DNA from: Candidatus Saccharimonadota bacterium
Lineage (GTDB): Bacteria > Patescibacteriota > Saccharimonadia > QS-5-54-17
Reading direction: 5' to 3'
NCBI GenBank assembly: GCA_050486185.1
Contig: JBJHCT010000001.1
Location: 82,216 to 146,215 of the forward strand
Length of the DNA stretch: 64,000 nt
The notes beneath the pieces are model-generated. The model ran no database searches, was not told the origin of the DNA, and saw nothing but the letters and a program-made list of their open reading frames with translations. The translations under genes and the position numbers were made by a program. How positions within the stretch are numbered: the stretch's first letter is position 1; each line of letters starts with the position of its first letter. Below, piece by piece: positions 501 to 39,162 of this stretch.

Positions 501-1670
501 ATGAAAACAAAAACAAAAAAATTAAAGTCTATTATTGCTATATTCTTAGCACTAGTTTTAGTGCTTGGTTTTTATACTGATACTTTTGCGCAAAGCTTGG
601 GGGATTTACAGCGCGAAATCGAAAGATTAAACGAAGATATATCTGATTCTGAGAAACAGATCCAAGAACTTAGAGAGAAGGAAGACACTCTACAGAACCG
701 TCTAGCTATCCTCAATGCTGAGGCCAGTCAATTGCAGTCTGAAATTAATCGTACCGAGAGACAGATCAAAGATGTTCAAGCTGAAATTAAACAAAAAGAA
801 GAAGAATTAGATCGCACTAAGGAGCTGATTCAAGAAAATGCCAAGATTCTCTACAAGCAGGGCAATCCATCTACTATCGAGGTACTGTTTTCTAGTGAAA
901 ACTTTACAGACTTCATTAATCGACGCGAATATTTAGATAGAGTAAAAGCTAGTCTTAACGATGCTGCTAAAGAAGCAGTAGCTATTAAGGAAGATCTAGA
1001 AGAGAAAGAGAGTGATTTAGAGGTTAAATCTAGCGAACTAAATATGCAGAAGCGACAGCTATCATCTAGGCAAGATGAGCAGCGTAGATTGATTGCTGAA
1101 ACTAGGGGGCAAGAAGCTCGATACCAAGAGCTAGTAGCCCAACAACAAAAGGATTTAAAGGAAGCAAGAAGAAGATTAGCCCAAGAGCTAGCTGCTAGAC
1201 AGAGCAACATAGTTTCTGGTGGTACTGGCGGTTATCCATACGCCAATGTATCTCCATGGAGTTTTAATATGTGCTACCCAGATCCATGGGGTATGTGTCA
1301 GAGACATTGCACTTCATATACAGCCTGGAAGGTACATGCAGATTATCTGGCCGGTAAAGTGCGATTTAATATGCCTAATTGGGGCGGATTTGGTAATGCA
1401 CATCAATGGATAGGTAACGCGCAAAACATGAATATACCAACAGGTAGTACGCCTAAAGTTGGTGCTGTAGCTATTGATCCTAACGTAGGTTGCGTAGGTG
1501 GAACATGTTATGGCCACACAATGTACGTGGAAGAGGTACTTTCCAGTAATACTATAAGGATTAGTCAGTACAACGCCCTAACGGATTCAGCAGGTAATTT
1601 TACCGGTACATATAGTGAGGCTACAGTTAATACTTCAGGATTAACCTTTATCTACTTCCAAGACTGGTAG
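501..1670 (+). CDS. PcsB-like secreted peptidoglycan hydrolase: signal peptide, long coiled-coil, C-terminal CHAP amidase/peptidase domain
   Basis: Likely start is MKTKTKK at 501, followed by a signal-peptide-like hydrophobic stretch. An EL/Q-rich heptad coiled coil spans about 250 aa. The C-terminus has Cys/His CHAP-type motifs (MCYPDPWGMC...GHTMYVEEV). Confidence 0.6.
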   Translation: MKTKTKKLKSIIAIFLALVLVLGFYTDTFAQSLGDLQREIERLNEDISDSEKQIQELREKEDTLQNRLAILNAEASQLQSEINRTERQIKDVQAEIKQKEEELDRTKELIQENAKILYKQGNPSTIEVLFSSENFTDFINRREYLDRVKASLNDAAKEAVAIKEDLEEKESDLEVKSSELNMQKRQLSSRQDEQRRLIAETRGQEARYQELVAQQQKDLKEARRRLAQELAARQSNIVSGGTGGYPYANVSPWSFNMCYPDPWGMCQRHCTSYTAWKVHADYLAGKVRFNMPNWGGFGNAHQWIGNAQNMNIPTGSTPKVGAVAIDPNVGCVGGTCYGHTMYVEEVLSSNTIRISQYNALTDSAGNFTGTYSEATVNTSGLTFIYFQDW

Positions 1671-1723
1671 AATAAAATAAATTGTCACAGATAACGACTT
1701 TTATTTAGCTAAATGCTACAATA

Positions 1724-2953
1724 ATGCTCATGCATAACGACGATCCAGTGGTTGAGTTGAGGCCCTCTAAGTCTAGGAATTTTACCCTAGCCTCAGTAGT
1801 AGCTATAGCCATATTAGTTGGTTCTTTGGGTTTTGTCCTAGGAGCTAATATCAATCAACTAAGCGTAGGTCAATATGATAGTGAAAATGAACACCTACCA
1901 GAAAAACTAGACTATTCCTCAGTAGATAGATTGTACGATCTCTTGCGCCAAAACTATGCCGGAGAGTTGAATTTAGAAGATTTAATGCTAGGTCTCAAAC
2001 AAGGCTTAGTTAGTGCCACGGGGGATCCTTTCACCGAGTATCTAACATCAGAAGAAGCCGAGGAGTTTCGCAGTAGTTTAAACGGCGAATTTAGTGGTAT
2101 CGGTATTGAGATCGGTATTAGAAATAACCAGCTGGTAGTAATCGCTCCCATAACTGGCACTCCGGCCGATAGAGCCGGTCTAAGGGCTGGAGACAAGATA
2201 CTAGCTATAGATAGCGAAGATACTACAGATATGAACCTACAGACAGCGGTAAGCAGTATCAGGGGGGATGAGGGTACGGATGTAGTGCTGAGCATCGGTA
2301 GAAACGGAGAAGATATTCAAGACATCACCGTCACCAGAGGCTTAATAGAGGTCCCTAGCGTTGAAGCAGAGATTTTAGAGGATGGTATTGGTTATATACG
2401 TATTAACCGTTTTGGCGATCATACGGCTAGAGATTTCCGCCAGGCTGCAGCTGGGCTTACAGATGATGGAGTTAGCAGGATAGTGTTAGATATGCGCAAT
2501 AATCCAGGTGGATATTTCGATGCGGCTGTAGCTGTAGCTAGTGAGTTTCTAGAAACTGGAGAAGTTGTGGTTGAGGAAAGACGAGGAGGTGACGTGATTG
2601 CCACTGAACGCGCTAGGAGTAGCGGCAGCCTAATAGGTTTAGAGGTAGTAGTTCTAGTGAATGGTGGTTCAGCTAGTTCATCAGAGATTGTAGCAGGTGC
2701 CCTAGCAGATCATGAAGTAGCTGTAGTCGTTGGTGAACAGACTTTTGGCAAAGGTAGTGTGCAACAGTTAGTAGATGTTGGTGATGGTAGTATGCTTCGA
2801 GTAACTATAGCTAATTGGTATACTCCCAAAGGTCTTAATATTGGTGACGGTGGTATTACCCCTGATGAGGTAGTGGAGATGAGTCAGGAAGATTACGATA
2901 TGGATCGTGATCCACAGCTTCAAAGAGCTATAGAGATATTACTCAACAGTTAA
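1724..2953 (+). CDS. C-terminal processing (tail-specific) S41 peptidase with PDZ domain
   Basis: N-terminal transmembrane anchor. PDZ segment GIGIEIG...ITGTPADRAGLRAGDKILAID. S41 catalytic-region motifs LVNGGSASSSEIVAGAL and FGKGSVQ. Confidence 0.8.
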   Translation: MLMHNDDPVVELRPSKSRNFTLASVVAIAILVGSLGFVLGANINQLSVGQYDSENEHLPEKLDYSSVDRLYDLLRQNYAGELNLEDLMLGLKQGLVSATGDPFTEYLTSEEAEEFRSSLNGEFSGIGIEIGIRNNQLVVIAPITGTPADRAGLRAGDKILAIDSEDTTDMNLQTAVSSIRGDEGTDVVLSIGRNGEDIQDITVTRGLIEVPSVEAEILEDGIGYIRINRFGDHTARDFRQAAAGLTDDGVSRIVLDMRNNPGGYFDAAVAVASEFLETGEVVVEERRGGDVIATERARSSGSLIGLEVVVLVNGGSASSSEIVAGALADHEVAVVVGEQTFGKGSVQQLVDVGDGSMLRVTIANWYTPKGLNIGDGGITPDEVVEMSQEDYDMDRDPQLQRAIEILLNS

Positions 2954-3057
2954 ACCTTAGGGTCTATAGATTCCTGCATTCAAAAATACACTAAACCACC
3001 CCTATTCTCAGCTTTATGTTAATATAGCTGTGTAAGAATCAAAAGAGGAGAGTTGTT

Positions 3058-4653
3058 TTGGCGTCTAAAGATACGAAATACATATTCGTAACAGGTGGAG
3101 TGTTGTCTGGGGTAGGCAAGGGCATTACAGCGGCTTCTATCGGCAGCATACTCAAAAGCACCGGCCTGAGTGTCAATATTCAAAAATGCGATCCATATCT
3201 CAATATGGATGCCGGTACGTTAAATCCAGCTGAGCATGGCGAGGTGTTTGTAACTGCTGATGGGGCTGAGACCGATTTAGATCTAGGCCATTATGAGCGG
3301 TTTTTAGACCAAGAGCTCAACAAGCACAGCTCCTTAATGAGTGGCCGCATACTTAATAGAGTCATCAAAGCTGAGCGAGCCGGTAAATATTTGGGTAAAA
3401 CTGTTCAGATAATTCCGCATGTTACCGACACTATACAGGATGAAATAGAGAAAGCTTCAGAAGGCTATGATGTCCATATTGTCGAGATAGGTGGCACGGT
3501 CGGGGATTATGAGGGCTTGAGTTTTATAGAAGCTATTCGTGAGTTTAAACAACGGGCGGGTAGAGAAAATGTGATGTATGTACATGTGGTATATATGCCT
3601 TACGTGCGAGCTTCTCGAGAGGTCAAGACTAAGCCGGCTCAAAACGCCGTTAGGATTCTTCGAGGCTACGGTATTAATCCAGACGTCTTAGTGGCTAGGA
3701 CTGAGGAAGAGGTCAAAAACGGTATATTAGATAAATTAAGTATGTTTGCTGATGTACCAAAGAGCGGTATCTGTATAGCTCCAACTGTTAGTAGTGTCTA
3801 TGAAGTGCCTTTGATTATGGATGGTATCACCAAGCATTTAGCCACCAAGCTGGGTCTAGAGCTTGGTGATATTGATCTCAAACACTGGAAGAAAGTTATA
3901 TCAGCTGCCAACAACACTTCTTTACCAACTGTAAAAATTGGTGTGGTGGCGAAGTACATGGATCATGAAGATACATACATGAGTGTTTTTGAGGCTGTTA
4001 AGTCAGCTGCCTGGAATGAAGGTTTGAGTCCGGAAATAGTTTGGATAGATGCCGAGAAGGCCGAGAAGAGACTACCTATAAAAGAGTTAGAAAGCTTAGA
4101 TGGTATTGTGGTTCCAGGTGGCTTTGGGTCAAGAGGAGTCGAGGGCAAGATCAGGGTAGCTGATTGGGCAATGAACAACAACAAACCATATTTAGGGCTG
4201 TGTCTAGGCATGCAAGTAGCAGCTATAGCTTTAGCACGTAAGGCGATCGATAGCTCGGCTAATTCTACTGAATTTGATTCTAGTACCAACTGCCCAGTCG
4301 TGAGTTTGATGGAAGAGCAAGAAGATGTGGTAGACCTAGGAGGTACTATGCGACTAGGTAATTGGGAATGTCATCTTGAGCCCAGCTCTATAGTCAGGTC
4401 TCTATATCGAAAAGATGTAATTCTTGAAAGACATAGGCACAGGTATGAGTTCAATAACAAATACAGACAACAACTGGAGTCTGCCGGTATGGTTTTCTCA
4501 GGACTATCTCCAGATAAGAGGTTAGTAGAAGTTATAGAACTAAAAGATCACCCATTCTTTGTGGCTAGTCAGTTCCATCCCGAATATACCTCTAGACCAG
4601 GTAAACCAAATCCGTTATTTAAGGGTTTTATTAAAGCCGCTAAAAGTAAATAA
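3058..4653 (+). CDS. pyrG: CTP synthase
   Basis: TTG start preceded by AAAGAGGAGAG. N-terminus YIFVTGGVLSGVGKGITAASIG. C-terminal glutamine amidotransferase region GLCLGMQ. Confidence 0.95.
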   Translation: MASKDTKYIFVTGGVLSGVGKGITAASIGSILKSTGLSVNIQKCDPYLNMDAGTLNPAEHGEVFVTADGAETDLDLGHYERFLDQELNKHSSLMSGRILNRVIKAERAGKYLGKTVQIIPHVTDTIQDEIEKASEGYDVHIVEIGGTVGDYEGLSFIEAIREFKQRAGRENVMYVHVVYMPYVRASREVKTKPAQNAVRILRGYGINPDVLVARTEEEVKNGILDKLSMFADVPKSGICIAPTVSSVYEVPLIMDGITKHLATKLGLELGDIDLKHWKKVISAANNTSLPTVKIGVVAKYMDHEDTYMSVFEAVKSAAWNEGLSPEIVWIDAEKAEKRLPIKELESLDGIVVPGGFGSRGVEGKIRVADWAMNNNKPYLGLCLGMQVAAIALARKAIDSSANSTEFDSSTNCPVVSLMEEQEDVVDLGGTMRLGNWECHLEPSSIVRSLYRKDVILERHRHRYEFNNKYRQQLESAGMVFSGLSPDKRLVEVIELKDHPFFVASQFHPEYTSRPGKPNPLFKGFIKAAKSK

Positions 4654-18578: not shown

Positions 18579-18872
18579 ATGTCAGTAGTTAAAGTAATCG
18601 GCTTACAGCATCCAAACTCTGAAAATGTACAGATTACCCTAAGTGCAGATGGTAGTGTAGATATACCAAGTTTGGGCGTGTCTGGCTCCGGAACTTTAAT
18701 GGCCGGTTTTACTAACTGGTCAGACTATTACACCGATAATAGTCCAACAATAGACTTTGGTGGTCTATCGGAGAATGTTGACTTCTCTAATGAATACTTT
18801 CCCAAGAACAAAATAGACTTTGCTCTAGGTAATGCAGAGACTGACTTTGGTACCGAGCTACCAGCAGCATAA
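18579..18872 (+). CDS. Hypothetical 97-aa protein sharing an N-terminal QHP..S....I.L.ADGSV repeat with the glycine-rich protein at 29423..30805
   Basis: Strong RBS (AAAAGGGGA). N-terminus MSVVKVIGLQHPNSENVQITLSADGSVDI aligns with MSSKLRVNDIQHPDSNEPNIKLDASGGV / LKHPDAVNPQITMNADGSVNV. Confidence 0.55.
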   Translation: MSVVKVIGLQHPNSENVQITLSADGSVDIPSLGVSGSGTLMAGFTNWSDYYTDNSPTIDFGGLSENVDFSNEYFPKNKIDFALGNAETDFGTELPAA

Positions 18873-28637: not shown

Positions 28638-29422
28638 AGACCCTAGGGCTTTGTTTAAAGTTTAATGGGGTGTTAAATGATCGGTACACCTCTTCTCCTC
28701 ACTTCTCTATTCTGTTCGGTTTACGTTCGATAAATATCTATAATAAAAAAGATAACAAAAAACATATTTAAAAACTTAAAGTCAAACATTGTCAAATATA
28801 TAGGGAAAAGAGTAGTAGAGGATAGGAGGGTAGTGTTGTCAAATGCAAACATGACACTATAGCATTTGGTGCTAGGCTGTGGACAAATGATGTAAATTTT
28901 ATGACGTAAGATTATCTAGGTAGCTAGTTGTTAGGCTTAGTAGGCTTAAGAAGTGCTTATATTATATATAAAAGTTTATATGAATGTATTAGGGAGTCTT
29001 ATAAAACATTTATTAGTAAAATCTTAGTAAAACCCCTTAAAGCCCCCTATTAGCAAGGTATCGATAGTCACAAGAGTTATAAAAAACTCTATGTCGCAAA
29101 AGGTACATTGTGCGACGTAGTGTCTATATCAAAGTAGGGACCACTCTATCACCAAATGTCTATGTAATTTTTTATTTTAAAACGTTTGTTACTACATTCC
29201 TCTAAATTTTGTTTGTCTCTAATTTATTTTTCACACACTTTCCTAGCTCACGTGTGTCTATGTATTGGTATTTGCCTAAATTTAATTAATCTTTAATTAT
29301 TGGTTAATTTGCGATGGATTCTATATTTTAGCTGTATTAGTTAATTACGTACAAAAAACGAACATAATTAATTTCAGTGTAAATTGATCGTTAATAAAAG
29401 AGAGAAGTGCAAGTTGATGTGT

Positions 29423-30805
29423 TTAGCCTATACGGTAACGGATGATGACAATGCCGGAGCCGCCATTGCCGGCAACGGCTCCGCGACGACCACCACCCCC
29501 GCCTCCACCGGTGTTTGCCGCCCCATTGCCACCAACAGCCGCCCCTCCACCACCTTCTCCACCTAAGCCTTGCGACCCGCCGTACGAAGCGCCACCACCT
29601 CCACCTCCACGTGCGGTTGCTACTCCGGTAATAGAAGAGGTTAGACCTGCTCCTCCGTCACCACCCTTCGCACTTACGCCGTTCTGTCCCGCTACTCCTG
29701 CGCCACCACCTCCACCGGTAGAATAGTTGGATGATACTGCGTTACCACCGTTCGTACCCTGCCCAATAATGCCAACACCTCCGGTGGCCCCAGTGTTACC
29801 ACCACCACCGCCCGAGCCTCCTTGTGCGTTGCCCCGTTGGGAGCCGTCGCCTCCTTGTCCACCAACAGAAGTGATGGTCGAAAAGCTTGAGTCGCTCCCG
29901 TTGAATCCAGACTCTCCTCCGTTAATACCCCTTGATCCACCGGCACCGACGACGACCGTATGAACACCTTTGCTGATAAAAAATAATGGTTCGGCGACAG
30001 ATGAACCGCCAGACAGCTCACCCACGACAGCACACCGATAACCGCCTGCTCCACCACCTGCCGCAGAAGCGCCATCAGACGAGTCCGCTTCGCCACCCCC
30101 ACCCCCACCGATAACTAGATACTCAACCTCACCAGCGCCAGTAATAACCTCAAAAGATTGTGATGATCCAACTGTTGTGAAGTTATGTATACGGTAGATC
30201 TTGCCATCTATCTCTTCTTCGAAAACTTCATCTCCCCCTGTAGCAAAAAGAGACTGGATAAGTAGGCCGTTTTCGGTTAATACCCACTCATTCTGGGCCC
30301 TTTTTCTAAGTTGAGTTTCACCATACTTTCTAACAAAGTAGTATGGACCAGGAGCAAGAGGGCTTTTGGTACTAACGTTTTGGTTAGCGGTAACGGCTAG
30401 CTTGGCTTCATTATCTCTATATAGAGAGATTTTAGATCCTATCTCAAAGTTAGCCTCACTATCTTGGGGTACTTTAATGGTTACTACTTTGTTCTCATCT
30501 TCATCATCTAGGGTCAGGACTTTGCCAGCATCCTCTAGTGCTAGGGTGTATTCGTTGTTTATATCAGGAGTTAGAGCTTTTTCTTGGGCTATCTGGGTTT
30601 GATTAACACTTTCTTGGGTAGCTAATTCTGTAGGGTCAATTCCAGCTACATTAACACTACCATCAGCATTCATAGTGATTTGTGGGTTTACAGCATCAGG
30701 ATGTTTTAAAGACTTAGCATTTACACCACCTGAAGCATCCAACTTAATATTAGGCTCATTTGAGTCTGGATGCTGAATGTCATTGACTCTTAGCTTACTA
30801 CTCAA
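29423..30805 (-). CDS. Glycine-rich fibre/adhesin-like protein (N-terminal QHP..ADGSV repeats, central beta-rich region, about 200-aa poly-Gly C-terminal domain)
   Basis: N-terminal repeat shared with 18579..18872. C-terminal GGxGGxGG tracts resemble glycine-rich phage minor-tail or fibre domains. Last gene of a co-directional four-gene module. Confidence 0.55.
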   Translation of the reverse strand: MSSKLRVNDIQHPDSNEPNIKLDASGGVNAKSLKHPDAVNPQITMNADGSVNVAGIDPTELATQESVNQTQIAQEKALTPDINNEYTLALEDAGKVLTLDDEDENKVVTIKVPQDSEANFEIGSKISLYRDNEAKLAVTANQNVSTKSPLAPGPYYFVRKYGETQLRKRAQNEWVLTENGLLIQSLFATGGDEVFEEEIDGKIYRIHNFTTVGSSQSFEVITGAGEVEYLVIGGGGGGEADSSDGASAAGGGAGGYRCAVVGELSGGSSVAEPLFFISKGVHTVVVGAGGSRGINGGESGFNGSDSSFSTITSVGGQGGDGSQRGNAQGGSGGGGGNTGATGGVGIIGQGTNGGNAVSSNYSTGGGGGAGVAGQNGVSAKGGDGGAGLTSSITGVATARGGGGGGASYGGSQGLGGEGGGGAAVGGNGAANTGGGGGGGRRGAVAGNGGSGIVIIRYRIG

Positions 30806-30895
30806 TATCAGCTCTTTTCTTTATTTTCTACCCTATAATCTTAATATGCTTATGATACCAGCGGTATCATAAGGGGTCAAATAAAGTGCTGTTAT

Positions 30896-33544
30896 CTACT
30901 CTTCCCTTCTCAATTTAACCACCTTGCCATGCTCTATAGTGTTATTATTTGTCTTTTTGGTGGGTAAACCTCCCTTATCATTTACACCTTTGTGATTATT
31001 CCCCCTGTTATGCCTGTTATTGTTCTGGTGGGTATTGTGTCGATTATTCTTGCCATTACCTTGCCTATTGTTGTTTTGCTGATTGTGCTGTTGGTTTGTA
31101 TGCTGGTTACTAGTTACATCTGCCCAGGAGCGAATCTCTGCTTCTACCTCTGCTCTAGAGGAGCTAAAGCTTCTAGAGTTTTCGATAATCTGCGGTATAA
31201 AATCTCCCGGTACCTCAGGGGTTTTAAGTGAAGTAGCGGCAAATGAAGAAACCTTCTCACCATCTATACTCATACTAATTACAAAGTGGCGGTTGTTGAG
31301 TTTGACTAGATCCTCTCCCTCGAAGGTAGGTGCGAAGTATTTAGCTAAATACGGAGCATCATCAGCACTGACCCTGAAGGATATAATTGTGCCTACGTTA
31401 CCAAATACAGCATCTCTGACCTCTTGAGACATCTGAGAGATGTATTGGTTGGCTATAGTTAGGTTTAATCCATATTTCCTAGCTTCAGATAAGATAACAG
31501 CAAAGGAATCAGTAGCGAAGTTCTGGAACTCATCGACGTATAGGTTAAAGGGCCTCCTATTCTCAATACCAGGTATATTAGCTCTACTCATGGCGGCTAA
31601 CTGGATTTTAGTCACCATCAGCGAGCCTAATGTAGCAGCGTTATCCTCTCCTACCTGTCCGCGTGATAGATTAACTATGAGGATCTTACCCTCATCCATC
31701 ATCTCCCTGATGTTGAAAGCGCTTTTAGGCTGCCCTATGATGTTTCTCATCAATGGATTAGCTGTAAAGGCTCCTACCTTGTTTAGAATCGGTGCTACGG
31801 CCTCTGAGGCGAACTTATCGTTCCAAGAAGCAAACTCATTAACCCAGAAGTTTTTCACTACTGGATCCTCAATACTATCTATGACTTTTTGACGATATCC
31901 CTTCTCGGTTAACATCCTAGTAATCCCTAGTAGTGTGGCGTTAGGATAGTCTAATAAGGCTAGAATGGTATACCTGAGGATATATTCTAGTCTTGGACCC
32001 CAAGAGTAGCCAAACATGCGCTTCAAAGACCCTACCACTTCTGATGATATATGTCCCTTTAAGCTTGGATCGGTGACTTCAAGGGGGTTAAAAGCTATGG
32101 GGTACTCAGTATCAGCTGGATTAAAATAGACTACGTCCTTAACCCTATCTTCAGGGATGTAGCGCAAGATATCGTTGGCAAAGTCACCGTGTGGATCAAT
32201 TACGGCAAACCCCTGATCATAGTAGACGTCAGATAGGGCTAGAAGTAGCATCAGGTGGGATTTACCGGTACCGGTTTGTCCTACTATATAGGTGTGTCTA
32301 CCTCTATCGCTTCTTTTGAGTCCGAACTGTCGGTGTTGACCCCTGAAGTTAGTTACTCCTATAGTGCTGAGTTCTCCGGGTTCAACTAGTTGCGGTGTAG
32401 GTATATTCGATGGCGGCTCAGCAGTTTTACTCTGAGCCCATATCATACTCGGAGTCTCAACATTGGCATGTGGTAGGTGATAAAGGCTAGCTAGTTCCTC
32501 AATATTTAGAACAAAACCTTTGTCCAAAAAGACTCTGGAGCGATACCGGCGCAAAGCCTCCTCTTGATAGTAGTGCTTTTTAATTTTGAAACTGTTGGTA
32601 TTATCATTAAACTGTTTGAAAGCACCGACCAGGGCCTGAATTCTCAGTCTAGATAGGTTTTTGTCGTTGCCTACATGACAAAGTCTAATACTAACTTCAT
32701 AACCGAGCTTTGAAATTTTGTCATTAACTCCTTGGACCATGGCTTTTTGTTGATCGGATAACTCTGCTGGCCCACCTTTTTCTCCTGCTTCTGGTGGTTT
32801 CCAGATAGCGATGAATAAATCATGAATTAACTTCTGTAACCCTCCTAAGAAACCCTCAAAACTCTTGCCGCTACTGCCATTTCGCAGTTTATTAATAAAG
32901 GTCTCTCCCCGTTTATGCCAGCTATCTTCCAGGGGTCTAGCCATAATCTGAATCCAAGCTTGTTCATTTTCTTCCTCTAGTTTTGATAGTACCGCTGTAA
33001 TACCGCCCAAAGGATCGACCTCGAAGCTGTTAAAGGTGCGTATCGGTAGAACGTCGCTATTAGTTAACCCTAACTCCACAGAGTGAGCTTGAACTTCTTC
33101 ACCAAACTCTTTACGGGAATAATCCTCTTCAACCTCAACGATATTAACACTAGGATACTGGGCGTAAACCTGTCCCTCTACGAAGTTACGTAAGTGTTTA
33201 GGAGTCCAGATAAAGAATCTAATATGCTTATCAACAGAGACGATTTCAAAGCTGATATGTTCTTGCAAAGCCCCTTCTTTAAGCAGTTCTTGTCTAGGCC
33301 TTAGGATTCCGTGCAGACTGGCAAATAGCTGCTCGGCTGATAGCTCAGCCTTGTCGTTCTCTCTAGGTACTTCCAGTAGTAGTAGTGAGTACTGGCTATC
33401 ACTCACCCACTTCTGCTTGCGTATGTTTTGCCAAATCAGAAAAGCTAGGACTATAACGATAACTATCCAGCCTCCCCAGTCGAAGATTAATCGACCCAAG
33501 AACTGGATAATAGTAAACAATACTTCAAAAACAATATTCATCAC
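30896..33544 (-). CDS. Membrane-anchored P-loop NTPase of the HerA/FtsK/VirB4-TraG (AAA_10/DUF87-like) class with a C-terminal Q/N/H-rich low-complexity tail
   Basis: N-terminal transmembrane helix. Walker A YIVGQTGTGKSHLM, followed by AVIDPHGDF as in HerA/VirB4-type ATPases. Walker B NLYVDEFQNF, then TIANQ. About 70 aa of N/Q/H-rich tail. Confidence 0.55.
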   Translation of the reverse strand: MMNIVFEVLFTIIQFLGRLIFDWGGWIVIVIVLAFLIWQNIRKQKWVSDSQYSLLLLEVPRENDKAELSAEQLFASLHGILRPRQELLKEGALQEHISFEIVSVDKHIRFFIWTPKHLRNFVEGQVYAQYPSVNIVEVEEDYSRKEFGEEVQAHSVELGLTNSDVLPIRTFNSFEVDPLGGITAVLSKLEEENEQAWIQIMARPLEDSWHKRGETFINKLRNGSSGKSFEGFLGGLQKLIHDLFIAIWKPPEAGEKGGPAELSDQQKAMVQGVNDKISKLGYEVSIRLCHVGNDKNLSRLRIQALVGAFKQFNDNTNSFKIKKHYYQEEALRRYRSRVFLDKGFVLNIEELASLYHLPHANVETPSMIWAQSKTAEPPSNIPTPQLVEPGELSTIGVTNFRGQHRQFGLKRSDRGRHTYIVGQTGTGKSHLMLLLALSDVYYDQGFAVIDPHGDFANDILRYIPEDRVKDVVYFNPADTEYPIAFNPLEVTDPSLKGHISSEVVGSLKRMFGYSWGPRLEYILRYTILALLDYPNATLLGITRMLTEKGYRQKVIDSIEDPVVKNFWVNEFASWNDKFASEAVAPILNKVGAFTANPLMRNIIGQPKSAFNIREMMDEGKILIVNLSRGQVGEDNAATLGSLMVTKIQLAAMSRANIPGIENRRPFNLYVDEFQNFATDSFAVILSEARKYGLNLTIANQYISQMSQEVRDAVFGNVGTIISFRVSADDAPYLAKYFAPTFEGEDLVKLNNRHFVISMSIDGEKVSSFAATSLKTPEVPGDFIPQIIENSRSFSSSRAEVEAEIRSWADVTSNQHTNQQHNQQNNNRQGNGKNNRHNTHQNNNRHNRGNNHKGVNDKGGLPTKKTNNNTIEHGKVVKLRREE

Positions 33545-33603
33545 CAGTAATTATACCTATTAAAGAGCTAAATCTAAAATCGGTAATAATATACAACTAC
33601 CTC

Positions 33604-34074
33604 TCATCTTAGACGGGCCGGTTTTGAATTATCTGGCTTATTTGCAAATCTAGGCCAAAGCAGAGCCTGTTTATCCATATTCCAAAGTCGCGCTGTAACC
33701 ACAACTCCGTTAGCTCTTGTCTTATTAAGGCTCCTTAGGTCAACCACTAATTGCCTAGTTCCATCGAAACACACACTCCTAAATTTCTGAAATGACCACT
33801 CAGTATTAGGTCCCCGTGTCCGGGCTTCCTGTAGTTTAGTTATATCTTGATCCTGATCAAGTACAACTTCTCTATCTAGGTATACTAGCTTATTTCTGTG
33901 ATGAACCGTTAAGTTGTTGAGATACTTAACCACAGCATCAATATTTGTATCGACTTCTCCTCGTAAATGGCTACCAAAGCAATCAATAGAGGCAGCGATA
34001 TATAGATCATCTTGCTTTGGAGCTTCTGGGCTTAATATGGGTGGAGGGGGAGCCTCGAAAAGAGACCTTGGCAT
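33604..34074 (-). CDS. Hypothetical 156-aa protein (Pro-rich N-terminus)
   Basis: ORF only, lying between the regulator and ATPase genes of the module. Confidence 0.4.
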   Translation of the reverse strand: MPRSLFEAPPPPILSPEAPKQDDLYIAASIDCFGSHLRGEVDTNIDAVVKYLNNLTVHHRNKLVYLDREVVLDQDQDITKLQEARTRGPNTEWSFQKFRSVCFDGTRQLVVDLRSLNKTRANGVVVTARLWNMDKQALLWPRFANKPDNSKPARLR

Positions 34075-34084
34075 ATTTTTAGCT

Positions 34085-35146
34085 TTACCCCTCAGCTAAG
34101 GCATAAGTAGCTTTAGATACGCGCTTAAACTTATCCTTGCTCTGCAAGTTCAAAACTACAGTAGTTGGTTTGACCTGTCTTTGTTTTAAGACTCTTTTAA
34201 CAATTTCATCTCGGTGAAGGGGTGACTCATCTTTAAGGATAGCCTCAATTACGTCCGATACTGTGCCTTGAGAAAAGCCCCACTCATTAAGAGCATAAAT
34301 ACCTCTACCGACTAGTACGAAACGAGAGTCTTTAATTAGCTCGTTATGTATAGCTTGAGTAGTAACGTCTTTGCGGTGAAAATCTGAATTCTTGATATGC
34401 TCAGCAATCTCGTTAAAATGCATCGGCTCTTTTTCGCGACTTAAGACGATGTAGATCTTATCTCTAATGCTTTTGGGATTAACTTGCGGCCAAGAAACTA
34501 GACCCCACTTATCATCCAAAGTAGCGATATGCTTACTAGATCTAATCAGTCCATGTAAGTGGTGCTCTTCTAATTTACCGTTAATGTTCTGGTGTATATC
34601 ACTAAGTGATACGGGTTTGCCTAAAGTACGAATTGTTTTCACCACTTCGTCATGTAAGGTTTTAGTGGTTTTGTGATCTCCGTGGTGATCTTTTAAGGCG
34701 AGAGCATGGTGGAAGTCGTCATTTTCGTTAATGATCACAATCTCTGGTATGAGATGGGCCAAGAAATTGACGTGAGCATGTTCTTCTGTGCCGGAGTGAG
34801 TACTAACTTCATGCAGGGGTACAATGCGGCCTAAAGACTCTAGAGCGCCCAAGAAGTGCTCCTTCAATGATTCTTTGTGGTTATGTTCCATCTGCTGCAG
34901 TTTGGTCAGAGTCTGTTTTTCTATCTGACGTACACGTTCGCGAGTAATTCCAAGCAGCTTGCCGATTTCTTCCAATGTTTCTTTTCTATCTTGCAGTCCA
35001 AAGCGTCTAGTGATGATTTCTCTTTCTCGGTCTTTATCTATAGTATCTAGAAAATCATTAACTATTTGAGCAATGTCTAAGCTTGGCTTGGCAGTAGTTT
35101 CCATCCGGCACCTTTCACTTTTTAGCTTTCTTTGATTATAAAACAA
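34085..35146 (-). CDS. Sigma-70 region-4 HTH fused to two HARE-HTH (RNAP-delta N-terminal-like) domains; probable transcription factor
   Basis: [25 protein letters not shown] is a sigma70_r4 signature. Two winged-helix HARE-HTH-like units: [13 protein letters not shown]...[17 protein letters not shown] and an earlier degenerate copy. A more likely start is the ATG at 35104 (METTAK), which has a GGTG RBS. Confidence 0.5.
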
Positions 35147-35193
35147 GGAGTATTCGGTGTCAATTGAAATTTATCAATAAATGTTATCTATAT

Positions 35194-37599: not shown

Positions 37600-39162
37600 T
37601 TAGAACAAACTAGTCTGAGAGGGTCGGTTGTTAAAACCTCCAGTATCATCACTATCTTTTTTGATATCTTCATTGTTTTGACCCTTTTCTACCAACTCAA
37701 CTAAAAATCGATATATCTCGACCATAGCCAAAGTATCAAGGGCGCAATACTTTACTAGATCATCAAATATCTTGTCTTTATCTGGTGCTTTTTCAATAGC
37801 TGCTTTGTACCAAGAACTTTGTGCGCTCATGCCGTCGGCTATATCTAAATCTCGGTAACTTAGCTCTGGTGCGATGGCTGGCAAGACCTTTTTGATACTA
37901 GCACTACCGGCAAAGCTCTTGTCGATATACCAGCCCTTAGAAAAAGGTATCATCAAATCAACAATTCGCTTATTGACTTGTTTCATCCAACTCTTATATT
38001 CCGGTACCAACTCGCCCATATCGCTGTTTCTACCCATCTCAAAAGCCTGATACCAGACCAAGATACTTCCCTCACCTCCTAAGTCTTGATGCAATCTCTC
38101 AAGTAGTCTCGGTGTAGGGTTATCATCTCCTCTATCTAGGTATTCAAAATGCTGCAACTCACCCCCAGGGCTATCGAGTACATGCAAGGAGTACTGGAAA
38201 GGAATCTCTTGATAGGCGCCGGTGCCAGGATAGATCGGTACGGAATGTGAGACAGTCTCATAGTCTAAAAACCACAACGGAAACTCTAGCTTATTTAAAA
38301 ACTTCTCAATCTTCTCAAGTTCAATAGGCGGTGTTTCTTGCCAAGCTTTAATCTGGCTTTGTTGACGAGCATTAAAACCCTCTAGATCATTTACTTGCTT
38401 TAAGCTATCTACTCCACCAGCATGTAGCAGCTTTACATCTTCAGGTTTTAACTGAGCTAGCTTGTATATATGTTCCGGTGGTAGCTCTGGGTTTAAGTGT
38501 AAATACATCGGCAACCAAATACCTAAGTTACCGGCATATTCTAGGCCTAAATCTGGGCAGGTTTTTTGATCTAATACCTTTAAGGCTTTGGGTATTTGCT
38601 GCTCTACTTCAGGTATTCTCTGTTTGACTTTGTAGGTGATCTTTTTTTGACTGACTAGTAGCTCTGGTTCGATATTCTCTCCTCGTTTGTACTCTTTATT
38701 AACATAAAGTAGATAGATATCACCTACCTTGACCCCCATCTCCTCCCAGGCTACGGCCTGAAAAGCCAGATCCGATAGATGATCATCCTTCACGCTAGTT
38801 GAGCTCTTTACTTCATATAGGTCCCAAGTCTTGCCGCTACGTTTTAAGACGTCACTTTTAACTAGTAACCCTCTATCCGTAAATGCGGTGGCTTGAAAGA
38901 TTGTTTCAACACTCTCATCTTCCATTAGTCTTTTAGTTTGATTAACTAGCAGGTCAAACTCCCAAGGTTTAGCATCAACTAATTTAGCGCTCGGGAACAA
39001 TTTACGAGCTTGGGCTTCAAAAGCATGCCCTTTATCGAACATAAATTGATCGGACGTGGTTATCGGTGGTAGTTTCTTCTTATCGAACTTCTCTAGCCAT
39101 AAATAGCCTGGATGAATTAGCCAGTGCATGAAGTTGGATTTGGATAGGTATTTACTCAACAT
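37600..39162 (-). CDS. DUF2779-like protein with a RecB/Cas4-type PD-(D/E)XK nuclease core
   Basis: N-terminus LSKSNFMHWLIHPGYLWL resembles DUF2779 starts. TWDLYEVKSS looks like a hhDxK-type nuclease motif. Confidence 0.4.
   Translation of the reverse strand: MLSKYLSKSNFMHWLIHPGYLWLEKFDKKKLPPITTSDQFMFDKGHAFEAQARKLFPSAKLVDAKPWEFDLLVNQTKRLMEDESVETIFQATAFTDRGLLVKSDVLKRSGKTWDLYEVKSSTSVKDDHLSDLAFQAVAWEEMGVKVGDIYLLYVNKEYKRGENIEPELLVSQKKITYKVKQRIPEVEQQIPKALKVLDQKTCPDLGLEYAGNLGIWLPMYLHLNPELPPEHIYKLAQLKPEDVKLLHAGGVDSLKQVNDLEGFNARQQSQIKAWQETPPIELEKIEKFLNKLEFPLWFLDYETVSHSVPIYPGTGAYQEIPFQYSLHVLDSPGGELQHFEYLDRGDDNPTPRLLERLHQDLGGEGSILVWYQAFEMGRNSDMGELVPEYKSWMKQVNKRIVDLMIPFSKGWYIDKSFAGSASIKKVLPAIAPELSYRDLDIADGMSAQSSWYKAAIEKAPDKDKIFDDLVKYCALDTLAMVEIYRFLVELVEKGQNNEDIKKDSDDTGGFNNRPSQTSLF

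Follow-up and report, generated by a model that had tools for sequence, protein, structure and literature searches.

The four genes between positions 29,423 and 35,146 of the 64,000-nt stretch of Candidatus Saccharimonadota contig JBJHCT010000001.1 analysed here (the window) probably form a composite locus. We argue that two of them, which encode a sigma-70 region 4 protein with a HARE-HTH domain (the regulator) and a membrane ATPase, are a conserved pair. The other two encode a small protein of 156 aa and a glycine-rich protein, and they would be lineage-specific genes in variable slots at the replication terminus. A first-pass annotation had taken all four for a dedicated operon encoding a new apparatus. 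That claim is not supported. The four genes are never together in 18 related loci, and homologues of the glycine-rich protein lie away from the ATPase.

The layout itself was described correctly. The four open reading frames (ORFs) are on the minus strand at 34085-35146 (353 aa), 33604-34074 (156 aa), 30896-33544 (882 aa) and 29423-30805 (460 aa), and the ORF listing gives intergenic gaps of 10, 59 and 90 nt. Their homologues come from Candidatus Saccharibacteria and other Patescibacteria.

Gene neighbourhood

Two sets of loci were compared. The first was 80 loci encoding ATPase relatives, which were searched with nine local proteins, mapped for ORFs and searched iteratively. The second was 80 metagenome loci selected by the dif-like site described below. 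Fifteen Saccharibacteria loci show both flanks, and the order is topA, a variable stretch, the sigma4/HARE-HTH gene, zero to two small ORFs, the ATPase, another variable stretch and then convergent ftsQ-murG-ftsW. The regulator is directly upstream of the ATPase in 18 Saccharibacteria loci. None of the 18 has all four genes; only the regulator-ATPase pair recurs. Homologues of the 156-aa or glycine-rich protein were found in 0 of the 80 ATPase-selected loci and 0 of the 80 dif-selected loci. In L001-L005, whose ATPases are 70-77% identical to the one in the window, the regulator's stop codon abuts the ATPase start, and about 700 nt of non-coding DNA follows the ATPase before ftsQ is reached.

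The pair has its limits too. The ATPase is upstream of the dif-like site in 8 dif-selected loci, and in 5 the regulator is followed by the site with no ATPase between them. The distance in these five (L105, L123, L128, L143 and L151) is about 0.7-1 kb. This means regulator-ATPase adjacency is not universal in Saccharibacteria. In Peregrinibacteria and Gracilibacteria loci the ATPase is about 40% identical and its neighbours are different. The sigma4/HARE-HTH gene is absent beside the ATPase in those loci even when iterative searches are included. Going by gene order, the conserved unit is the regulator-ATPase pair, and it appears to be one within the Saccharibacteria only.

The stretch beside the dif-like site acts like a hotspot for accessory genes. 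What lies between the ATPase and the site can be nothing at all, unknown ORFs (n=3), a glycosyltransferase with prepilin-like genes (n=3) or an 87-aa transmembrane protein. Examples are the unknown ORFs at L096 957-2900, the glycosyltransferase and three prepilin-type genes at L127 440-4082 and the small transmembrane protein at L117 2182-2445. The backbone shared by the Saccharibacteria consists of topA, the sigma4/HARE-HTH gene, optionally the ATPase, the dif-like site and the convergent ftsQ-murG-ftsW genes. The gene for the glycine-rich protein comes from a small multigene family (Gly_rich_2), and it occupies the hypervariable stretch between the ATPase and the site.

Three promoter-like sites on the minus strand bear on how these genes are expressed. 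A TTGACA-17 nt-TATAAT site at 35135..35163 in the spacer between topA and the regulator matches the consensus at 12/12 positions. A TTGACC-17-TATCAT site with a TG at 30852..30880 matches at 10/12 positions and lies in the spacer between the ATPase and the glycine-rich gene. Both of these are consensus matches and nothing more. The third, TTTAGA-17-TATAAT at 33550..33578, also matches at 10/12 positions and ends 5 nt before the ATPase start codon. Since its TATAAT is only 5 nt from the GTG/ATG start (33545-33578) and no Shine-Dalgarno motif is visible, the ATPase mRNA may be leaderless or near-leaderless.

One can imagine a single operon for a novel secretion, adhesion or injection device, where the ATPase exports the glycine-rich protein, the helix-turn-helix (HTH) protein regulates and the small protein serves as chaperone or adaptor. 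All four genes point the same way with little space between them, and by class the ATPase belongs with type IV secretion systems (T4SS). The glycine-rich protein has no signal peptide, and its conserved N-terminus might be an export or attachment signal. Other genomes even have pilins and a glycosyltransferase in the slot after the ATPase. However, this set of four is found together nowhere else, and the glycine-rich paralogues are away from the ATPase. The regulator's orthologue is essential and core, whereas that of the ATPase is dispensable. The last two genes each come with a promoter-like site of their own. It also counts against the device that T4SS substrates usually have C-terminal signals. 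We consider such a device quite unlikely.

The membrane ATPase

The ATPase (30896..33544, minus strand, 882 aa) is a member of a known, published family. It belongs to the Patescibacteria-wide family of "orphan VirD4-like coupling proteins", which have a DUF8128 domain and a TrwB-type motor. The protein starts with a probable transmembrane hairpin (residues ~2-41), followed by DUF8128 (~50-370), a P-loop motor that is coupling-protein-like and contains an all-alpha insert (~400-810), and a tail (812-882). Pfam detects TrwB_AAD_bind, DUF87 and TraG-D_C. The Walker A motif GQTGTGKS, the DPHGD motif and the Walker B motif VDEFQNF that were read by eye are invariant across 32 homologues, and in this alignment the N-domain and the motor are both very strongly conserved. 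The tail is indeed rich in Q, N and H, and is predicted to be disordered. The protein was originally said to have a single transmembrane segment. The membrane anchor stands, but hydrophobic segments at ~2-21 and 19-41 suggest a hairpin rather than clearly one segment.

The predicted structure points to a second relationship. The full-length AlphaFold 2 model has a mean predicted local distance difference test (pLDDT) score of 73.9. Residues 45-390, which are Pfam DUF8128 (PF26449), were modelled separately with a pLDDT of 82.4 and a predicted template modelling score of 0.80. In Foldseek the best matches of the full-length model are TrwK/VirB4 chains, collinear over ~900 columns (2e-10). TrwB comes next on the motor (1e-8, TMt 0.56), and then HerA. 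When the N-domain is searched alone the top 13 matches are all VirB4 chains (E 1.5e-5 to 5e-4, TMq 0.40-0.46). Taken together, the ATPase is predicted to combine a transmembrane hairpin, a VirB4-like N-terminal domain (NTD) and a motor with coupling-protein sequence signatures. The hairpin ahead of this NTD is reminiscent of what we take to be the arrangement in VirB3-VirB4 fusions. The published structure-based table for the Southlakia epibionticum protein SEML1_0293, which we assign as the orthologue, gives a fold to residues 361-795 only (Wang et al. 2023, PMC10633639). The predicted VirB4-NTD-like fold of the family's N-domain appears to be new relative to the published descriptions consulted.

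The first-pass call of a HerA/VirB4-class ATPase was right as to class, with a distinction to be drawn between sequence and fold. The protein is in the FtsK/HerA superfamily and of the VirB4/VirD4 class. By sequence it is TrwB/TraD-like, and its VirB4 likeness is in the fold. It shares an N-terminal membrane anchor, a P-loop motor and an all-alpha insert with TrwB, VirD4 and TraD, and TrwB is the structure that best fits its motor domain (TMt 0.56). Both Pfam models are passed, TrwB_AAD_bind over residues 414-737 with 33 bits (cut-off 20.5) and TraG-D_C with 24.2 (cut-off 22). There are differences too. A DUF8128 domain of ~320 aa separates the anchor from the motor. No relaxase or T4SS channel gene accompanies the ATPase among the ORFs checked in the 64-kb window. 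The NCBIfam models for TraD and for VirD4-like CD1115 proteins give 51.7, 39.4 and 33.1 bits against cut-offs of 366, 250 and 647, and none is passed.

VirB4/TrwK and the ATPase have a two-domain architecture in common, with a VirB4-type NTD predicted before a RecA-like C-terminal domain. However, the TM-scores are modest (0.40-0.46) and there is no signal at the sequence level. NCBIfam TrbE has an E-value of 0.0084 and 14.1 bits (cut-off 1020), and no VirB4-family Pfam model matches. There are also no VirB3, VirB6 or VirB8 neighbours in the window or in related loci. The comparison with HerA gives a mixed picture. DUF87 scores 28.2 bits (cut-off 23.2) over residues 416-491 only, HerA structures match the motor at 1e-7 or weaker, the N-domain is VirB4-like rather than a HAS-barrel, and no partner gene is present.

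The closest cellular comparison is SEML1_0293. It has the same domains (PF10412, PF12696 and PF01935) at ~400-720 and is from the same phylum. The synteny is the same as well, with topA, the sigma4/HARE-HTH gene and then the ATPase, and both ATPases are far from any virB4 cluster. The loci differ in that the window has the 156-aa gene inside the pair and the Gly_rich_2 gene after it, while Southlakia has GNAT and CRISPR-Cas genes downstream. The family is not rare. A published survey counted 5,713 VirD4-type homologues in 2,918 of 3,035 Candidate Phyla Radiation genomes, of which 148 are near virB4, and its authors raised a possible exaptation (Quinonero-Coronel et al. 2025, 10.1101/2025.01.22.634366).

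Phages have the ATPase too. Phage G gp156 is homologous over residues 42-806 (6e-58) and SPO1 gp27.4 over residues 99-782 (4e-24), and both alignments include the DUF8128 region. PHROG 5156, of unknown function, matches at 3.7e-84. Identity to the SPO1 and phage G homologues is only 24-25%, and no sigma4/HARE-HTH gene is among their neighbours. The SPO1 gene (L086, 92636-95356) is flanked by one gene annotated "partition protein" and another annotated "replication initiation by nicking". The phage G gene (L087, 90859-93336) follows gp155, which is annotated VirB-like.

What would such a protein do? The hairpin would anchor it in the membrane. The VirB4-NTD-like domain and a hexameric RecA-type motor would then thread a polymer at the cytoplasmic membrane, using ATP. 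We lean towards a nucleic-acid substrate because of the gene contexts of the two phage homologues, because the protein passes on TrwB_AAD_bind, a Pfam family described as the coupling-protein DNA-binding domain, and because of its DNA-related neighbours, which are topA and the regulator in the window and a dprA-type gene in relatives and Southlakia. DNA or nucleoprotein has about an even chance of being the substrate and is favoured over unfolded protein, which we regard as a minority possibility.

The sigma4/HARE-HTH protein

The regulator is a DNA-binding protein with sigma-70 region 4 and HARE-HTH/winged-helix domains. The mechanical ORF runs to 35146, but the start is most likely the ATG at 35104, which gives the 339-aa protein (34085..35104, minus strand) found in databases. 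The annotated start among its homologues (n=7,996) is M15. The perfect TTGACA-17-TATAAT falls inside the N-terminal extension that was first included in the protein. It lies ~30 nt upstream of the ATG, and a Shine-Dalgarno-like GAAAGG is in between.

Pfam detects Sigma70_r4 (1.9e-15) and HARE-HTH (3.7e-9). The first description had region 4 and two HARE-HTH domains. Region 4 is borne out, but Pfam detects one HARE-HTH rather than two, and the published domain parsing of the Southlakia orthologue has three winged-helix domains (Wang et al. 2023, PMC10633639). The stretch at residues 15-75 resembles region 4 of primary sigma factors (PDB 4g6d, 6e-12). However, region 4 alone is detected, without regions 2 and 3, which rules out a complete sigma factor. 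Alignments to the NCBIfam sigma models are confined to the C-terminal 60-70 residues of those models and score far under the cut-offs. The other relative is the RNA polymerase delta subunit, RpoE of low-GC Gram-positives. Residues 226-290 match TIGR04567 (7.5e-9) as well as Pfam HARE-HTH, with a TIGR04567 score of 35.7 bits that is under the cut-off of 42. The domain is N-terminal in the delta subunit and internal here, and the acidic tail is missing.

The genetics of Southlakia are informative about both members of the pair. Transposon sequencing in S. epibionticum ML1 (Wang et al. 2023, PMC10633639, Tables S1 and S2) covers the syntenic region. SEML1_0296 is topA and essential. SEML1_0295 is an alpha/beta hydrolase and non-essential. 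SEML1_0294, which we assign as the regulator's orthologue, is listed as a 349-aa "RpoS" with Sigma70_r4 at 27-72 and HARE-HTH at 225-283. It is scored essential all three times (ES/ES/ES), and is core and Patescibacteria-enriched. SEML1_0293, the ATPase orthologue, is scored non-essential all three times (NE/NE/NE), so it can be dispensed with in laboratory co-culture. Its normalised reads drop from 5817 to 2940 and then 1372, which may point to a mild cost. From SEML1_0292 onwards there are GNAT, then Cas9 and Cas1, all non-essential. A dprA-type gene is just upstream of topA, as it is in the relatives' loci. The essential T4SS cluster (SEML1_0006-0019) is ~260 kb from SEML1_0293, and a second coupling-protein-like gene, SEML1_0142, is essential. 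The ATPase probably acts independently of that cluster.

These results do not support a dedicated regulator, which is what the protein was first called. The gene is core, Patescibacteria-enriched and essential in Southlakia, whereas the ATPase is dispensable there. We infer that the sigma4/HARE-HTH protein is probably a general, essential transcription or nucleoid factor. The same data weigh on whether the pair is an anti-phage defence module in which a HerA-like ATPase works with a sigma-like sensor, as in MZA or MADS. PADLOC does give weak matches, with the ATPase matching mad8 (3.5e-16) and HerA models and the regulator matching MzaA (3.2e-10). However, these matches do not extend beyond the generic P-loop region and sigma region 4, and no partner of the nuclease, Sir2 or methylase type accompanies the genes. 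The two genes are themselves core and near-universal, and the regulator's orthologue is essential. We think a defence module is extremely improbable.

The spacer and the replication terminus

The AT-rich spacer of 780 bp described in the first-pass annotation is there: 785 nt (28638..29422) at 31% GC against ~42% for the window, between convergent ftsQ and the glycine-rich gene. It has no ORF longer than 43 aa, and Rfam, used at the gathering threshold and at E<=1, returned no credible non-coding RNA. The corresponding gaps in relatives are 400-1,000 nt. The cumulative GC skew climbs to ~29 kb and then falls, and gene orientation converges at the same place. These two signals put the locus at the replication terminus.

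At the skew maximum is a 28-bp dif-like site, ACGTCGCACAATGTACCTTTTGCGACAT on the minus strand (29091..29118), with two inverted arms around a 6-bp centre. It is the sole conserved piece of the gap between the ATPase and ftsQ across 11 Saccharibacteria loci, with the consensus ACGTCGCACAATGTATATTTTGCGACRT. The site is single-copy in the window even when 3 mismatches are allowed (0 matches are expected by chance), and it is found once per contig in at least 120 metagenome contigs. Its positions in relatives include L003 10778-10805, L005 10930-10957 and L007 10452-10479. In relatives it follows the ATPase stop codon by 70-250 nt, while in the window the glycine-rich gene lies between them. Like chromosomal dif sites, this sequence-level candidate is 28 bp long and single-copy, with inverted arms at a GC-skew switch. 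The 6-bp centre is TGTATA in most relatives and TGTACC in the window. The E. coli dif site is, we believe, GGTGCGCATAATGTATATTATGTTAAAT, with the same TGTATA centre and much of the consensus left arm alike. The arms of the Saccharibacteria site differ from the proteobacterial and firmicute dif consensus. A XerC-like recombinase is documented in Southlakia only. We regard the spacer as a putative terminus region with a candidate Xer site.

This position makes it worth considering that the ATPase is a housekeeping FtsK analogue that segregates chromosomes and resolves dimers at dif during division. It is membrane-anchored, belongs to the FtsK/HerA superfamily and, in the Saccharibacteria loci examined, is separated from the dif-like site by 70-250 nt, next to ftsQ, murG and ftsW. 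The first-pass annotation had itself raised the case of an FtsK paralogue. However, the ATPase does not profile as FtsK. There is no Pfam match to the FtsK_SpoIIIE motor or to the gamma domain, and Southlakia has a separate canonical FtsK with four transmembrane segments, alpha, motor and gamma domains (SEML1_0096). That FtsK is essential, whereas the ATPase orthologue is not. We reject the analogue on these two grounds, the missing domains and the separate essential FtsK. The ATPase also has quite different neighbours in Peregrinibacteria and Gracilibacteria, five loci have the dif-like site without an adjoining ATPase, and phages carry homologues of the protein. An FtsK role is very improbable.

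The 156-aa protein

The first of the two lineage-specific genes (33604..34074, minus strand) encodes a fast-evolving small protein of no known family, with no transmembrane segment. It was called an orphan, and Pfam, NCBIfam, PHROGs and PADLOC give no match to it. When 1.84 billion representatives were searched exhaustively with HMMER, one true homologue emerged, P0363 (159 aa, 30% identity, 1e-8). In locus L084 this protein sits between a regulator fragment 81% identical to that of the window and an ATPase N-terminus 91% identical. The same slot in L085 holds a 182-aa protein that is 29% identical to the window's and 47% identical to P0363, flanked by a regulator and an ATPase 82.5% and 90% identical to those of the window. 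The gene is absent in L001-L010, and jackhmmer and hidden Markov model searches against all ORFs of 160 loci found nothing.

Since the slot is kept in three genomes with conserved flanks, we argue that the gene is real and has been inherited vertically in a narrow sub-clade. Judged by identity it is diverging far faster than its neighbours (29-47% against 81-91% for the flanks). A Shine-Dalgarno-like GAGGGG lies 10-15 nt upstream of the gene and overlaps the regulator's stop codon. This suggests that the gene is translationally coupled to the regulator, which on sequence grounds is probably the case. The protein would be cytoplasmic, and might modulate the regulator or the ATPase.

Two other candidates were rejected. 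P0362 was judged spurious, being a 24-residue match (query 88-111) within a long repeat protein. The motif KQALLWP, common to the 156-aa protein and a 106-aa ORF after the L128 regulator, is not significant.

The glycine-rich protein

The second lineage-specific gene (29423..30805, minus strand) encodes a 460-aa Gly_rich_2 protein. Its N-terminal ~200 aa contain a twice-repeated QHPDS...P.I.L..DGSV motif and a phage minor-tail-like segment, and the remaining ~250 aa are the glycine-rich domain. Pfam Gly_rich_2 (PF21722) matches residues 211-458 over model positions 2-226 of 226 (4.4e-22, 79.7 bits, cut-off 24.3), and the domain ends in GGSGIVIIRY as in other Gly_rich_2 proteins. The likeness to phage fibres seen at first reading is genuine. 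PHROG 2295 matches at 6e-49, the tail-fibre PHROGs 454 and 6202 match weakly, and residues 42-176 resemble the minor tail proteins of the Gordonia phages JKSyngboy and Frizzle at 29-31% identity (2-3e-6), the 31% being reached over residues 49-176. No solved structure is detectable by sequence. No signal peptide, transmembrane segment or hydrophobic segment was found.

The gene family is chromosomal and multicopy. A full-length paralogue, P0122, is 52% identical and lies outside the window on the same 264,553-bp contig. The genomic context of the paralogues was read at L081, where three of them stand in tandem (849-4557). They have the N-terminus MSTIKAS.(F/L)QHPDS and differing glycine-rich C-termini, and they are downstream of a gene that by eye looks like rmlB (dTDP-glucose 4,6-dehydratase), away from the ATPase. 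The very conserved extreme N-terminus of the paralogues is MS..K....QHP(D/N)S. One family member is named as prepilin-type by its source, and the partner Pfam domains of others are presumably He_PIG, PKD and LamG, which are extracellular. The partner domains and the prepilin-type naming suggest an extracellular role for the family. We argue that the protein in the window probably serves in recognition outside the cell or on its surface, and that it probably has a promoter of its own.

The alternative is that this gene, and possibly the 156-aa gene too, was left behind by a phage or by an Xer-dependent element that integrates at dif, of the type called integrative mobile element exploiting Xer (IMEX). 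The phage tail-fibre and minor-tail matches speak for this. Relatives of the glycine-rich domain also occur in phage-like gene strings (L082, L083 and L088), and a 45-kb viral contig encodes a 2,232-aa protein that has one of them as its C-terminus. The gene stands immediately between the ATPase and the dif-like site, an interval that is empty in relatives. Third-position GC is lower in its N-terminal half (0.295) and in the 156-aa gene (0.318) than in neighbouring genes (0.33-0.42). However, a search of the window that tolerated up to 3 mismatches yielded no second dif-like site, and the ORFs checked include no integrase, capsid, terminase or further tail gene. The likeness to tail fibres is domain by domain, with no tail-gene module around the gene. 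The multicopy chromosomal family and its lineage-specific extreme N-terminus point to a cellular family that has been domesticated. Three genomes have inherited the 156-aa gene vertically in its slot. We find a phage or IMEX remnant unlikely.

One further ORF carries the N-terminal motif. It is 97 aa long (window 18579-18872, plus strand), lies between a 316-aa membrane protein and mraZ, and starts MSVVKVIGLQHPNSENVQITLSADGSV. It has the extreme N-terminal motif of the family without the glycine-rich domain. This ORF could be a member of the family that was truncated, or an attachment or export module shared with it.

Weighing the composite reading

Several points weigh against a composite locus, or at least against parts of it. 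Promoter-like sites are not more frequent in the region than chance predicts (17 found, 14.8 expected), and all four genes could still share one transcript. Their co-location here could be a functional link acquired so recently that comparative data do not see it. The contigs of L084 and L085, the two closest relatives, are short and stop before they reach the position downstream of the ATPase; the assemblies of the nearest relatives are GCA_040879705.1 and GCA_040879745.1. SEML1_0294 and SEML1_0293 were assigned as orthologues by synteny and matching domain coordinates. What we say on the substrate of the ATPase is wholly inferred. Since the glycine-rich protein has no signal peptide, a surface location would need some export route, and this could in principle be the ATPase itself. 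Even so, we hold that a conserved regulator-ATPase pair with two lineage-specific genes in variable slots is probably the right description.

Implications

The ATPase family is one of the few Patescibacteria-enriched proteins that are near-universal. There are about two copies per genome, and the family is not tied to the essential T4SS. What is added here is the predicted VirB4-like N-domain, the reach of the family into SPO1-type and giant Bacillus phages, and its pairing, in many Saccharibacteria, with a sigma4/HARE-HTH gene classed as essential. From these findings follow concrete hypotheses that suit the genetic systems now available in Southlakia and TM7x. The dif-like site can be used as a terminus marker for Saccharibacteria genomes. 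The region beside it is a hotspot of accessory and often surface-related genes, and host-range determinants might be sought there.

A bolder proposal can be made, though we rate its chance as small. The DUF8128 ATPases could be a distinct, stand-alone VirB4/VirD4 branch that moves DNA or nucleoprotein across the cytoplasmic membrane without a T4SS channel, and the Gly_rich_2 paralogues could be host-recognition adhesins derived from phage receptor-binding proteins. If so, a family common to nearly all Patescibacteria and large Bacillus phages would bring together a VirB3-like transmembrane hairpin, an N-domain like that of VirB4 and a motor of coupling-protein type. One example of its role would be the exchange of DNA, or its scavenging, between epibiont and host. 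The Saccharibacteria ATPase might then work with the adjacent sigma4/HARE-HTH protein, and the adhesins would diversify in the accessory island beside dif.

Other genes of the window and related loci

The division and cell wall (dcw) cluster, mraZ...ftsW-murG-ftsQ, is on the plus strand and extends to 28.6 kb. Housekeeping genes make up the remainder of the window, with topA and the genes for a DUF2779 protein, a P-type ATPase, histidine kinases, EngA and tRNA synthetases to both sides. T4SS, integrase and phage structural genes (capsid, terminase, tail) were not found among the window ORFs checked, and the nine largest other ORFs hold no T4SS gene. The absence of VirB6, integrase and capsid genes noted at first reading is borne out within that scope. 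The DUF2779 protein (520 aa, 37600-39162, minus strand) is upstream of topA and has a weak Cas4-like nuclease match. Its position is taken by dprA in most relatives.

In Peregrinibacteria and Gracilibacteria (L018-L080; for example L041 1-8000, L045 and L058 6178-7866) the ATPase gene is often beside tandem arrays encoding a Cys-rich family of ~550 aa. There can be six or more tandem copies, and 46 loci have 155 members. The sole Pfam match of this family is a treble-clef zinc finger below threshold (21.3 bits, cut-off 27). A helix-turn-helix protein of ~250 aa, TrmB-like by eye, often accompanies the arrays.

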